Source: an uncultured archaeon (lineage in GTDB: Archaea; Asgardarchaeota; Lokiarchaeia; Sigyniarchaeales; SOKP01). Taken from it: 28,396 bases of DNA. The stretch spans positions 1-28,396 of the forward strand of contig CAYLZE010000067.1 in assembly GCA_964388035.1 (NCBI GenBank), given 5' to 3'. The stretch's first letter is position 1. Every line of letters begins with the position of its first letter. The notes below the pieces were generated by a model that was given only the letters and a program-made list of their open reading frames with translations, did not search any database and was not told the DNA's origin. Of this stretch, positions 8,185 through 12,475 are shown piece by piece. The translations under genes were made by a program, and so were the position numbers.

Positions 8185-9105
8185 ATGTTTAAAGAGAAAT
8201 TTCATGACGGTATAATAAGCGCTAAGCAATTTAAACGAGAGGATATTGATTATATCCTTCAGAAGGGGCATGAGATGAGTTCCATTAAGAATTCAAATCT
8301 TTTACAAGGAAAAATTTTGGCAACATTATTTTTTGAACCTTCAACGCGCACCCGACTTAGTTTTGAATCTGCCATGTACCGTTTGGGAGGAAATGTGATT
8401 GGATTTCAATCAGGAGAGGTCTCATCAATCAAAAAAGGAGAATCTTTAGCAGATACTATTCGCACAGTGGAAAATTACTGTGATTGCATCGTAATGCGGC
8501 ATTCTTTAGAAGGAGCAGCAAAAATGGCTTCCAGGTTTGCCGGTATTCCTATTATAAATGCGGGATCTGGAAGTGGGGAACATCCTACCCAAGCATTACT
8601 CGATTTATTAACAATCAAGGAAGAATGTGGCAAAATAGATGGATTGAACATCGGAATCATGGGTGATTTAAAGTATGGGAGGACAGTTCATTCTCTCTCC
8701 GTGCTATTAACGAATTTTGATATAAATATCTATTTTATAAGTCCAAAAGAATTGTCCATGAGAGAGAGTGATAAAGAATTTTTACAAATTCGACAAATTA
8801 AAGCGAAAGAAATTACGGATTATCGAAAAGTACTAGATATTTTGGATGTACTGTACATGACAAGAATTCAGAAAGAAAGATTTGTAGATCCCGAAGAATA
8901 TGAAAAAGTGAAAAATATCTATCGATTTACTGAGGAGGATTTAAAGTTGACCAAGGATGGATTCAAATTATTACATCCCTTACCGAGAGTTTCGGAGATT
9001 TCATACAAGGTTGATGATTATGAAGAAAAAGCAAAATATTTCAAGCAAGTATATTATGGTTTGCAGTTAAGGAAGGCTCTTTTAGCAGAATTATTAATCG
9101 ATTGA
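8185..9105 (+). CDS. pyrB: Aspartate carbamoyltransferase catalytic subunit
   Basis: FFEPSTRTRLSFE, KKGESLADT, INAGSGSGEHPTQ, GDLKYGRTVHSL, YMTRIQKERF, LHPLPR; SD GAGGAG. Confidence 0.98.
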   Translation: MFKEKFHDGIISAKQFKREDIDYILQKGHEMSSIKNSNLLQGKILATLFFEPSTRTRLSFESAMYRLGGNVIGFQSGEVSSIKKGESLADTIRTVENYCDCIVMRHSLEGAAKMASRFAGIPIINAGSGSGEHPTQALLDLLTIKEECGKIDGLNIGIMGDLKYGRTVHSLSVLLTNFDINIYFISPKELSMRESDKEFLQIRQIKAKEITDYRKVLDILDVLYMTRIQKERFVDPEEYEKVKNIYRFTEEDLKLTKDGFKLLHPLPRVSEISYKVDDYEEKAKYFKQVYYGLQLRKALLAELLID

Positions 9106-9126: not shown

Positions 9127-11124
9127 TTAAATGATCCCATTATTGAGAGTAAACGTTGTTATTTTGGATCGTATCAAGGTATTGATGATTTCATCTAATG
9201 TTAGATCATCAGAATTTAACAAGCAATGAAATAGTAATCCTCCATCAATAAACCGTGCTAACCGTTCATGCATCTTAATATTATCGTAGAATGATGATGA
9301 AGAAGTTGTTTTAATGAAATTGGAATAGCATTGCGTATTATTCTTCTTTATTTGATTTGAATTTGTCTCATAATTCCTTTTTGAATCATGAAAAGGATGG
9401 GGTTGTGTTAAAACATAATTAATGTTGGTTTCTTCTCTTTTTTCTCTTATTAAGGAGTTCATTTCATTTAGGATTCTCATTCCGAACTTTGTACTATTTT
9501 CATTTCTTACAAATTCAATTCCACAATGCTGTTCAATTGCTCCAGCAAAATTGTGAAAACTAATAGACCTAATCGCCTGTTCGATACTAATTCTATTAAT
9601 ATCTCCAAAGAAACTATTTATAAACAAATCCCAAGTTTTATTCAAATGTAATTTTTTCGTAATAAAAGAAGTTTTAAAGGAAAAAAGTTCAAACACGGCA
9701 TTCAATCGCTCTTTAACTAATTCCAGAAAAATATCATCATTTCCATTAGCTTTTGAAGCGATAGAGCCGAGATTAATTAAAATCTTGTCTAATATTAATT
9801 GATTAAAAGGAATCTCCGTACTTGAACCTTTATTGATTTTTATATAAAAAGAATTGATTAATCCTTGTTTATCATCAGTATAGAATATGATTCCGTTCTC
9901 ATCCGAGGAAGTTAAATATTTCTCATGAATATCGTTAATATTATCAAGATTTGGGGGATTAGACACGTTTAATAATAAATATGGCAACTCATGAGATAAG
10001 AAACAATCTTGGTTTAATCTCAACCCCGCTAACAATTTTTTAGAGAGAGAATAATCAAGAGTTCCATCTCTTGCCTCACTAAAAAGGGAAAAATCTAATG
10101 ATAAATGCGCTCCATATCTAGTTATTTTCTTAATCAAATTCAATATCCTTGAATTAATAAGATCCACGAAAAATTCTACCTCAAAATCTTCCCAATACTG
10201 AAATAAGCACTTATCAAAATCGGTTAATACAATATCACCTGAAATAAAGGAAAAAAACTGTTCAAGATAATCAAATACTTGTAAAGTTAGTCTAGTTAAA
10301 CCCCTTAGCCCAACATTATTATAGAAATCAGTACCATTCTCCTTTTTAGCCTTTTCAATTAGACTTTTCATGTTCAAGGCGCAAGATAAGGGTTTTATGC
10401 TCCAACTATTTAAATTTAACAATAAAATCTCTTTAGATAAATATAAGTCCGCCAGGTGATTGGGTAGCAAGTTCAATAATAGAAATTGTTCTGAAACATC
10501 AGAACCTAATTTCTTCAAAAAGTGCTCGGGAGTCATGGTTTCATCATTGAACAATTTGTTCACTTCATAAGGAGGAGTACCCAATCGCGTCAAATTATGC
10601 CTAATTTTTTCCAGTCCATTTTCTATTAGAATGGCATTAATTAGTTCCCTCATGAGGGGAGCAGTTAAATATTCGATATTGATTTTATTCAATCGCTGGA
10701 TGGTTTCATTCACTATGATTTTGGCTAAACTCCGATCCAAATTTCCCTCTCGAATCAGATATTCTTCAATTTTTTCGACCTTAAACGGTTCTTTCGAGTA
10801 TTTTGAAGTCCTGATCATTTGGGCTTTATTTTCTTCATTTAAAATATCTTCAATGGTAGTAATAGTATTTAGGATTTTCTTTCCCAAAAATGTGAGAGAA
10901 TAACCATCCTCCGTTGATCGAATCAAATTGCTTGTTTTTAAGGCATTCAAATGGAATGAGAAATTTATATTAGAAGAATAGTGTGTTAAAACATCATTTT
11001 TAAGTTCCGTGAATGATAATGGATGAGAAGCACGATGAAGTTTCTTTATGATATCAATTCTAATGCCATGACTTAAAGTTCTCAATTGTTCTTCTAATAA
11101 CAAAGAAATTTTGTCGGTGTTCAT
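9127..11124 (-). CDS. ArsR-type wHTH + ATP-cone + degenerate class III ribonucleotide reductase (NrdD-like) fusion; putative nucleotide-sensing transcriptional regulator
   Basis: wHTH: LSHGIRIDIIKKL...LSFTELK...FSFHLNALK...YSLTFLGK. ATP cone: IRTSKYSKEPFKVEKIEEYLIREG...YLTAPLMRELINAILIE. NrdD-like segments: RLGTPPYEV, LLPNHLADLYLSKEI, INLGSIASKANGNDDIF, GGLLFH. No C-terminal CxxC pair or RxxGY glycyl loop. Confidence 0.82.
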   Translation of the reverse strand: MNTDKISLLLEEQLRTLSHGIRIDIIKKLHRASHPLSFTELKNDVLTHYSSNINFSFHLNALKTSNLIRSTEDGYSLTFLGKKILNTITTIEDILNEENKAQMIRTSKYSKEPFKVEKIEEYLIREGNLDRSLAKIIVNETIQRLNKINIEYLTAPLMRELINAILIENGLEKIRHNLTRLGTPPYEVNKLFNDETMTPEHFLKKLGSDVSEQFLLLNLLPNHLADLYLSKEILLLNLNSWSIKPLSCALNMKSLIEKAKKENGTDFYNNVGLRGLTRLTLQVFDYLEQFFSFISGDIVLTDFDKCLFQYWEDFEVEFFVDLINSRILNLIKKITRYGAHLSLDFSLFSEARDGTLDYSLSKKLLAGLRLNQDCFLSHELPYLLLNVSNPPNLDNINDIHEKYLTSSDENGIIFYTDDKQGLINSFYIKINKGSSTEIPFNQLILDKILINLGSIASKANGNDDIFLELVKERLNAVFELFSFKTSFITKKLHLNKTWDLFINSFFGDINRISIEQAIRSISFHNFAGAIEQHCGIEFVRNENSTKFGMRILNEMNSLIREKREETNINYVLTQPHPFHDSKRNYETNSNQIKKNNTQCYSNFIKTTSSSSFYDNIKMHERLARFIDGGLLFHCLLNSDDLTLDEIINTLIRSKITTFTLNNGII

Positions 11125-11278
11125 TTGTTCCTCTTTAAAATCCCAAATTTTATCAGAACTTCTTTAAAAAATTAAAAGATACTTACTTATTTAAAAATTT
11201 GGGAATTAGCTTATCAAAATCAAACTTTTGATAATATAAGGGTGATATAAAAAATTGAGAATCGATAAAATTGCAGAC

Positions 11279-12046: not shown

Positions 12047-12475
12047 TTGGCTAAAGGCCTATACAGCGCAAGAAAGTTACAAAGCAATCGGAAAAAGTAT
12101 AAGTGGTCCAAGTCGAAGTATAAACGTAAAAAATTAAAATTAAAACAAAAAGTTGACCCCTTGGAAGGATCTCCGCAAGCGAGTGGAATTGTACTTCAAA
12201 AAGTGGGACGTGAAAGCAAGCAACCTAACTCTGCTATCAGGAAATGCGTCCGAGTTCAGTTAAAAAAGAATGGAAAGGGTATTACGGCTTTTTTACCTGG
12301 AGACGGTGCCTTAAATTTTATTGATGAGCACGACCAGGTAATCGTTGAGGGAATTGGAGGGGCTAAGGGGAGAAGTATAGGAGACTTGCCCGGCGTGCGA
12401 TGGAAAGTAGTTAAAGTTAACGGTGTAAGCTTGGATGCTTTAATTAAAGGTAAAAAAGAGAAACCCATCCGTTAA
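12047..12475 (+). CDS. rps12: 30S ribosomal protein S12 (uS12/S23e type)
   Basis: [36 protein letters not shown]...[18 protein letters not shown]; TTG start with GGTG upstream. Confidence 0.98.

Follow-up and report, generated by a model that had tools for sequence, protein, structure and literature searches.

Bacterial NrdR, the repressor of ribonucleotide reductase (RNR) genes, joins a zinc-ribbon DNA-binding domain to an ATP-cone (PMC9110341, PMC12176259) and is rare in archaea (PMC9110341). How the supply of deoxynucleoside triphosphates (dNTPs) is controlled in archaea, and in Asgard archaea especially, is essentially unknown, a gap that would be filled by the protein family described here if our reading of it is true. 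The family is represented by a gene (P0001) on the minus strand of contig CAYLZE010000067.1 (assembly GCA_964388035.1), a stretch of 28,396 nucleotides (nt) from an uncultured Asgard archaeon that we refer to in its entirety as the window. Its product of 665 amino acids (aa) likewise has a predicted DNA-binding domain joined to an ATP-cone. In contrast to NrdR, however, the DNA-binding domain is a winged helix-turn-helix (wHTH) rather than a zinc ribbon, the cone belongs to the NrdD lineage and is trailed by a dead barrel of 480 aa, and the NrdR model TIGR00244 finds no match, so that the protein is an NrdR analogue at most and not a member of the NrdR family.

On the enzymatic side, the window protein shares the order of cone, connector and 10-stranded barrel with archaeal-type NrdD, the class III RNR that carries an N-terminal ATP-cone (P0121 of the same genome; structures 4coj from T. 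maritima, 8p23 from P. copri, 9dca from S. thermophilus and 1h78 from T4), whereas it is without the thiyl-radical cysteine, the zinc ribbon and the glycyl-radical domain of these enzymes and has an extra wHTH at its N-terminus. On the DNA-binding side, its first 90 residues match the ArsR/SmtB repressors (ArsR, 6j05; CadC, 1u2w; CzrA), with a recognition helix of the S-x-H-L-x-x-L type, but they fall under the family cut-off (NF033788), are fused to a 570-aa sensor body and are filed as a domain of their own, DUF7347. Transcription regulators derived from enzymes are represented by BirA, PutA and NadR, which keep catalysis and let a metabolite state set transcription; the window protein, which we liken to them by general description, differs in that its enzyme part is dead and only the regulatory module is well conserved. 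Literature searches returned no description of a family that combines a wHTH, a cone and a dead NrdD, and a Tn7 preprint mentions nrdD solely as an attachment site.

The gene probably acts as a switch, so far undescribed, in the supply of DNA precursors. In the reading that we favour, with moderate confidence, its product is a class III RNR converted into a regulator of transcription, in which the wHTH would bind the 9-mer CCGACAAAA and the ATP-cone would report the nucleotide state, for control of its own gene, of nrdD and, depending on the lineage, of nrdJ and a few DNA-metabolism genes.

Domain order and missing catalytic parts

The gene and its parts lie in the window as follows:

9127..11124, minus strand: whole gene P0001, coding for the 665-aa wHTH, ATP-cone and catalytically dead NrdD-like protein (from the open reading frame (ORF) list and translation)
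10861..11091, minus strand: winged helix-turn-helix, residues 12-88 (Pfam PF24038, DUF7347), with an ArsR-like recognition helix N54-x-S56-F57-H58-L59
10579..10818, minus strand: ATP-cone (residues 103-182), in which conservation is highest
10387..10578, minus strand: connector and first helices and strand of the NrdD core, residues 183-246 (LTRLGTPP ... SEQFLLLNLLP ... LADLYLS), aligning to the real NrdD
9130..10386, minus strand: degenerate class III RNR barrel, residues 247-665, which stops ahead of the zinc ribbon and glycyl-radical domain
9802..9879, minus strand: finger-loop-equivalent stretch, about residues 416-441, devoid of cysteine and located by way of the conserved I-N-L motif (N451)

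The succession of wHTH, ATP-cone and NrdD body, first proposed in a sequence-only reading of the window, was recovered by Pfam and by an AlphaFold2 model compared with Foldseek. DUF7347 matches residues 12-88 at 47 bits (cut-off 27.6), and among the N-terminal pieces of relatives the wHTH is matched by DUF7347 in 13/13, by HTH_20 in 8/13 and by HTH_5 in 5/13. A profile search of the PDB with this domain gave ArsR (6j05) as the best match (E 0.007), followed by CadC (1u2w) and, more weakly, CzrA (E 0.15), and the ArsR family model NF033788 scores it at 22 bits, under the cut-off of 55. Toward the C-terminus, Pfam NRDD covers residues 449-662, equivalent to model positions 283-506 of 562, at 61 bits (cut-off 26.2). 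The NrdD equivalog model of NCBIfam, TIGR02487, yields 50.1 bits, so far under its cut-off of 326.35 that, by NCBI's rule, the window protein is not an NrdD enzyme. The AlphaFold2 model, for which 30 relatives served as input, reached a predicted local distance difference test (pLDDT) value of 75 and a predicted template-modelling score (pTM) of 0.69, and its first 36 Foldseek matches in the PDB are all NrdD proteins (E 7e-16 to 3e-9, template-modelling score about 0.5), with those of S. thermophilus, T. maritima, P. copri and T4 at the top; the T4 and Thermotoga enzymes, which the sequence-only reading had put forward for structural comparison, are thus both among the best matches. As judged from this model, the window protein keeps the RNR/glycyl-radical-enzyme fold's 10-stranded alpha/beta barrel. 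Full-length homologues of the 665-aa protein number more than 120, at identities of 40-52%.

The genome to which the window belongs (5.47 Mb, 96.7% complete) also contains a separate and intact nrdD, as the sequence-only reading had anticipated. The encoded enzyme (P0121, 711 aa, contig C23) displays the finger loop SQCCRKF, the zinc site CPSC..CPQC and the motif RITGYY; its activase NrdG sits on another contig (C8), in agreement with the earlier remark that no activase gene lies near the window gene, and a class II RNR with an ATP-cone is encoded on contig C90. NrdR was not found: at 96.7% completeness, the genome is without a TIGR00244 match anywhere.

Set against the real NrdD, the finger-loop stretch of the window protein reads GLINSFYIKINKGSS where the enzyme has SQCCRKF, and none of the 55 residues preceding the conserved I-N-L anchor is a cysteine that could carry the thiyl radical; this comparison is anchor-based, MAFFT having placed the finger loop of the real NrdD in a gap. 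The glycyl-radical motif RxxG[YF] is absent, the protein ending in ...TFTLNNGII, whereas P0121 has RITGYY. The C-terminal zinc site CxxC..CxxC is missing from the window protein and from all f1-type relatives and is kept in about half of the distant relatives, while the NxN-type flap and the TPAES-like phosphate motif, compared with NrdD, and the HxHD-type strand motif of the connector and early core (residues 183-246) are eroded. A cysteine does occur further on, in the H533-C534-G535 triplet that is invariant among f1-type relatives, but this triplet aligns to SLTGSE of the real NrdD and C534 is therefore not the catalytic cysteine. By this alignment the protein is a pseudoenzyme, as the sequence-only reading had proposed: the NrdD fold is kept, and the loss of the thiyl-radical cysteine, the zinc ribbon and the glycyl-radical domain leaves no means of nucleotide reduction.

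That the gene might be a truncated copy of a working enzyme is ruled out by its distribution, as the 660-aa form is kept in 124/134 genomes of the window's own GTDB family, with E below 1e-180. A profile of the wHTH-cone part, run against 1.84 billion representatives, retrieved at least 247 clusters with E below 1e-30, and the architecture is thus conserved across a large family. Among the genomes searched, many Asgard families gave no match at E <= 1e-20. Public records assign the relatives of the window protein to Promethearchaeota, and databases label these proteins 'anaerobic ribonucleoside-triphosphate reductase'; naming them as working anaerobic reductases is a systematic error that distorts metabolic reconstructions of Asgard archaea.

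To follow the catalytic elements through the family, we inspected the relatives with a wHTH and a length of 560 aa or more among 148 cluster representatives and the long forms obtained from genomes, 133 proteins in all, and found the zinc site, the glycine motif and the finger-loop cysteine all together in 0/133. Orthologues that retain both the glycyl loop and the cysteine, which according to the sequence-only reading would speak against a pseudoenzyme, are therefore not found in complete form, and what does occur in distant relatives are remnants, never all three at once. P0128 and P0129, for instance, keep the zinc ribbon and an R-x-[IV]-G-x-Y motif with Glu or Asp instead of the finger-loop cysteine, and P0127 keeps the finger-loop cysteine and the zinc ribbon with the glycine motif missing. 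Relatives in other Asgard families are longer (710-780 aa), and some of these long forms have lost the entire C-terminal tail. Since none of the 133 relatives has all three elements and the remnants differ from one relative to another, the order of events that the sequences indicate is one in which the wHTH fusion came first and the catalytic parts then decayed stepwise.

Selection has acted unevenly along the protein. Mean column identity within the family amounts to 85% in the ATP-cone (39 invariant columns), 83% in the post-cone helices, 72% in the winged helix and 46% in the N-terminal half of the barrel, and identity to distant relatives is 50-58% in the cone and 9-16% in the N-terminal half of the barrel. 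The earlier assignment of an ATP-cone to residues ~103-180 finds a weak, sub-cut-off Pfam match in the window copy itself (residues 103-173, E 0.023) and is sustained by its relatives, whose N-terminal pieces match the Pfam ATP-cone in 12/13 cases at E <= 0.01 (best 4e-8), and by BLASTP, which at E 4e-14 aligns residues 114-307 to the real NrdD of the genome, over its ATP-cone and N-terminal body. A stand-alone ORF of 95 aa elsewhere in the genome (G000:C8:103884-104078, minus strand) has an ATP-cone match above the cut-off, at 28.3 bits.

Several further RNR-like genes were noted in the course of this survey. The genome encodes a second class II RNR (G000:C52:22850-24787, plus strand; 656 aa), which is 65% identical to the enzyme on C90 and without an ATP-cone, and a second dead NrdD paralogue, P0122 (G000:C29:33487-35319, plus strand; L002:1168-3000), of 610 aa and 43% identity to the real NrdD. 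P0122 has an ATP-cone-like N-terminus and no wHTH, its finger loop is deleted and its zinc and glycyl tail is missing; many genomes of the family have forms of this kind, 600-640 aa long. Several genes probably contain inteins or large in-frame inserts; in a number of genomes, nrdD frames reach about 1660-1690 aa (G154:C45, G157:C21) and nrdJ frames 1050-1670 aa (G161:C119, G159:C238, G173:C30).

A conserved 9-mer at the gene's own start and at nrdD

Two further features at the 5' end of the gene concern its possible control:

11109..11117, minus strand: CCGACAAAA site at codons 3-5 of the gene, a candidate operator
11185..11205, minus strand: predicted transcription factor B recognition element (BRE) and TATA box of the gene's own promoter (aaatttttaaataa), with a putative transcription start position

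The 9-mer CCGACAAAA, first noticed at codons 3-5 in 15 related loci, is present at +7/+8 in 77/80 species-level GTDB loci. The codons at the site are always xCC/GAC/AAA (72/72 genes) and codon 3 encodes S, A, T or P; outside the site, the same genes use GAC for 17.7% of their Asp codons and C in 11.9% of the matching third positions. With codons fixed against the genes' own usage and a variable residue at codon 3, the constraint on CCGACAAAA, as read from these alignments, is one that acts on the DNA and not on the protein. Exact copies of the 9-mer in the window's genome number 30, which is about chance expectation, and only 2/30 are sense copies close to where a long ORF starts (-120..+20), namely those of the window gene and of nrdD (at -77). 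Upstream of the 9-mer, at about 79 nt, a conserved ttcctaaaTTTTTATATAa element is found in 15 loci; the gene lies downstream of rpsG and has a conserved promoter of its own, predicted to be separate from that of rpsG. The start codons of 72 relatives (L139-L218) comprise 41 GTG, 25 TTG and 5 ATG, the window copy having ATG (11122-11124), and this prevalence of GTG and TTG may indicate deliberately weak translation initiation.

Twenty-six nrdD loci of the family were fetched, 22 of them with a usable upstream region, and an exact CCGACAAAA was found upstream of nrdD in 20 (20/26 loci, 20/22 usable), with a one-mismatch copy in 1 more. These sites, at -58 to -117, are embedded in diverged flanks and constitute the most widely shared 9-mer of those regions. 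A BRE/TATA-like element occurs about 72 nt upstream of the nrdD site, a spacing that resembles the one at the gene's own start (about 79 nt), so that the transcripts are predicted to contain both the own-gene and the nrdD sites in sense orientation, some 40-50 nt from their start. A former placement of the site directly upstream of the nrdD TATA box was revised in favour of this better-conserved BRE/TATA. The occurrence of one and the same 9-mer at the gene's own 5' end and in the upstream region of nrdD lends real support to the proposed role as an RNR-linked regulator.

Additional sites suggest a lineage-dependent set of candidate targets. A gene for a 122-aa Mrr-like protein (PD-(D/E)xK-type, nuclease-fold) carries CCGACAAAA in 17/30 loci, in 5 as a sense site at codons 4-6 and in 12 as an antisense site at -148 to -165, upstream of that gene's TATA-like box; the copy in the window's genome (G000:C28:6910-7266, minus strand; CCGACAAAA at C28:7417, plus strand) is of the antisense class. 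The protein itself was observed in 37/41 genomes of the family, with orthologues in L110-L138. Class II nrdJ has the exact 9-mer in 3/28 loci, compared with about 0.03 expected, the nrdJ of the window's genome not being among them. In genus g18 of the sister family f3, AAAAA[CA]CGACAAA[AT] stands in antisense upstream of the long-form gene in 3/3 genomes, and one nrdD of f3 carries ACCGACAAAA at -49. As both orientations are in use, the sites argue for recognition in DNA rather than in RNA. Other exact copies, near genes for YdjM-like, PadR-like and Rad51-like proteins and near two unannotated genes, were taken as chance, lying 200-560 nt off or in antisense, and Rfam gave no RNA family around the unexplained conserved sites.

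A candidate regulatory mechanism and competing explanations

In the mechanism that we propose, the winged helix would recognize CCGACAAAA both within its own gene (codons 3-5) and in the nrdD leader or promoter region and, in some lineages, also at class II nrdJ and at the gene for the small Mrr-like nuclease-fold protein. The ATP-cone, perhaps assisted by the helices with which the former RNR core begins, would sense ATP/dATP or the dNTP state, and the nucleotide state would in turn alter DNA binding or the oligomeric state, as in NrdR, such that RNR supply and the level of the regulator itself would track the nucleotide pool. With the two main sites in sense orientation and some 40-50 nt past the predicted start of transcription, repression by roadblock would be the most likely mode. 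The resemblance to NrdR may extend to the operators, as here too the candidate site is common to RNR genes and to the regulator's own gene; it ends at the form of the site, which is a single, non-palindromic 9-mer as opposed to the paired boxes of NrdR.

A number of observations weigh against this mechanism or limit it. A 9-mer that is not palindromic and mostly present as a single copy is unusual for a dimeric wHTH protein, and a site shared by the regulator's own gene is typical of autoregulation and short of proof of it, such that we infer the identity of the binder. We likewise infer that the cone binds nucleotide: against the Pfam cut-off of 25.8 (PF03477) the window's cone scores 15.7 and 19.2 bits, and its hairpin, I-R105-T, has a single basic residue where RNR cones have a Lys-Arg that contacts the phosphates (PMC12662201). 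The homologous cone of the real NrdD is itself borderline (22.6 and 26.8 bits), and its hairpin reads F-R-T, which makes the single basic hairpin residue a lineage trait. Furthermore, in the window's genome no site occurs within -250..+40 of nrdJ, nrdG, pyrB, pyrI or the second dead paralogue, and relaxed scans of the same genes and of the stand-alone cone gene (<=2 mismatches, CGAC core kept) returned nothing; looking for a motif upstream of the nrd and pyr genes, as the sequence-only reading had advised, was therefore fruitful at nrdD and not at nrdJ, nrdG, pyrB or pyrI of this genome. Finally, the gene outlasts its presumed target. Two near-complete g6 genomes keep the gene, its own site and the convergent pyrB and have no other NRDD-family match, and in family f3 the long form is present in 10/14 genomes while nrdD was found in 4/14. 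Persistence of the gene where no nrdD is found means that control of nrdD cannot be its whole function.

A clue to a wider scope may come from the gene that faces the window gene across their stops:

8185..9105, plus strand: pyrB, coding for the aspartate carbamoyltransferase (ATCase) catalytic chain; convergent with the window gene across a 21-bp gap; OTCace_N/OTCace in syntenic loci

The tail-to-tail arrangement reported by the sequence-only reading is exact, pyrB ending at 9105, and it recurs widely: pyrB is convergent directly past the stop in all 77 f1-type loci with enough flank and is linked to the gene in 6/7 distant families, in varying arrangements that include operon-like pyrB-gene pairs 61-67 nt apart. 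In one distant-family locus, a real nrdD adjoins the gene as well. The pyrB link and the survival of the gene in genomes where no nrdD was found suggest a regulon, or a signal, of wider scope that takes in pyrimidine and DNA-precursor metabolism. The earlier description of the protein as convergent on NrdR accordingly stands as far as an RNR-linked regulator role is concerned and is probably too narrow in scope, given that the gene persists without nrdD and is always linked to pyrB. In its most ambitious and more tentative form, which we regard as possible rather than likely, the proposal would be that in Asgard and other archaea the supply of DNA precursors is under the master control of dead class III reductases, in which the ATP-cone, perhaps with a relic specificity site, reads the pool and the winged helix sets transcription of RNR genes, of the regulator's own gene and of DNA-metabolism genes, in coordination with pyrimidine synthesis through the pyrB linkage and as an independent NrdR-like invention from a regulated enzyme. 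If true, a whole enzyme would have been recycled into a sensor. A concrete operator candidate, CCGACAAAA, and named target genes result from the analysis, and relatives are encoded in closed single-contig genomes of the sister family, which may open them to experiment, provided that they occur in cultured strains.

The pyrB linkage is also part of the case for a different, rather unlikely role, in which the protein serves NrdD or PyrB/ATCase as a non-catalytic partner or as an allosteric subunit, bound through the old RNR dimer surface, and some other regulator binds the 9-mer. NrdD enzymes are dimeric, and association of a pseudoenzyme with an active paralogue is common; besides the window gene, the genome encodes a dead NrdD paralogue that has no wHTH (P0122); pyrB is linked across families in several orientations, operon-like pairs with gaps of 61-67 nt included; and pyrI is not adjacent to pyrB. 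An ArsR-type wHTH that is present in all relatives, at 72% column identity and with an invariant recognition helix, is, however, hard to explain without nucleic-acid binding, and the gene survives where no NrdD is found. As to PyrB, the pyrI of the window's genome lies on contig C27, apart from pyrB, so that PyrI is present in the genome and the idea that the window protein has replaced it was dropped. A complex prediction for the window protein with PyrB (alignments A1 and A4; score 0.16, mark 0.32) speaks neither way.

Returning to the 9-mer itself, we consider it improbable that it works in RNA, with the window protein or another factor binding the messenger RNAs of the window gene and of nrdD, in the leader or the first codons, to control translation or stability. 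The sense orientation of the own-gene and nrdD sites about 40-50 nt past the predicted start, where they would be transcribed, the position of the own-gene site directly after the start codon and the weak GTG or TTG starts of most relatives are all compatible with such a role. The sites at the Mrr-like gene, on the other hand, are antisense at -148..-165 in 12 loci and precede a TATA-like box, and those of g18 in f3 are antisense upstream of the gene; this independence of orientation fits DNA recognition. ArsR-type wHTH domains are, moreover, DNA binders.

About as improbable is that the protein has a general function in chromatin, replication or housekeeping and that its place in the cluster reflects a core role in information processing with no link to the nucleotide pool. 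The gene does show near-universal synteny, downstream of rpsG in an rpoA-rpsG ... pyrB-PCNA-primase cluster with genes for TFS, PCNA, primase and GINS close by, and near-universal presence in its family (124/134). Set against this are its own conserved promoter, separate from rpsG, a specific 9-mer tied to RNR genes, an ATP-cone, that is, a nucleotide-sensing module, as the most conserved part of the protein, and the many Asgard families that, among the genomes searched, gave no match at E <= 1e-20.

Very improbable, lastly, is that the barrel continues to catalyse a reaction, one of a different, non-radical chemistry, since although the barrel fold is retained and f1-type members share an invariant H-C-G-[IL]-E (residues 533-537) and Q-P-H (574-576), conservation is lowest in the barrel (46% within the family, 9-16% to distant relatives, in which H-C-G is not kept) and no active-site-like invariant cluster runs across the whole family.

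Observations on the wider neighbourhood

Some features of the surrounding cluster and of related loci were recorded besides. In the window, rps12 (12047-12475, plus strand) is opposite in strand to rps7, nusA and rpoA in a cluster whose genes otherwise share one orientation, an inversion also seen in L005 and not in L004. In the latter relative, genes of IS605/TnpB type (OrfB_IS605, Cas12f1-like_TNB) flank pyrB on both sides (L004:10157-13067), in a gene-pyrB region that is fixed elsewhere. The locus L184 (DATKTW010000033.1) has a typical Asgard gene order under the title 'Candidatus Nanopelagicaceae bacterium', which looks like a binning or labelling error, and the rpoA'' of one relative (L005:2757-5537) carries Intein_splicing and LAGLIDADG domains.

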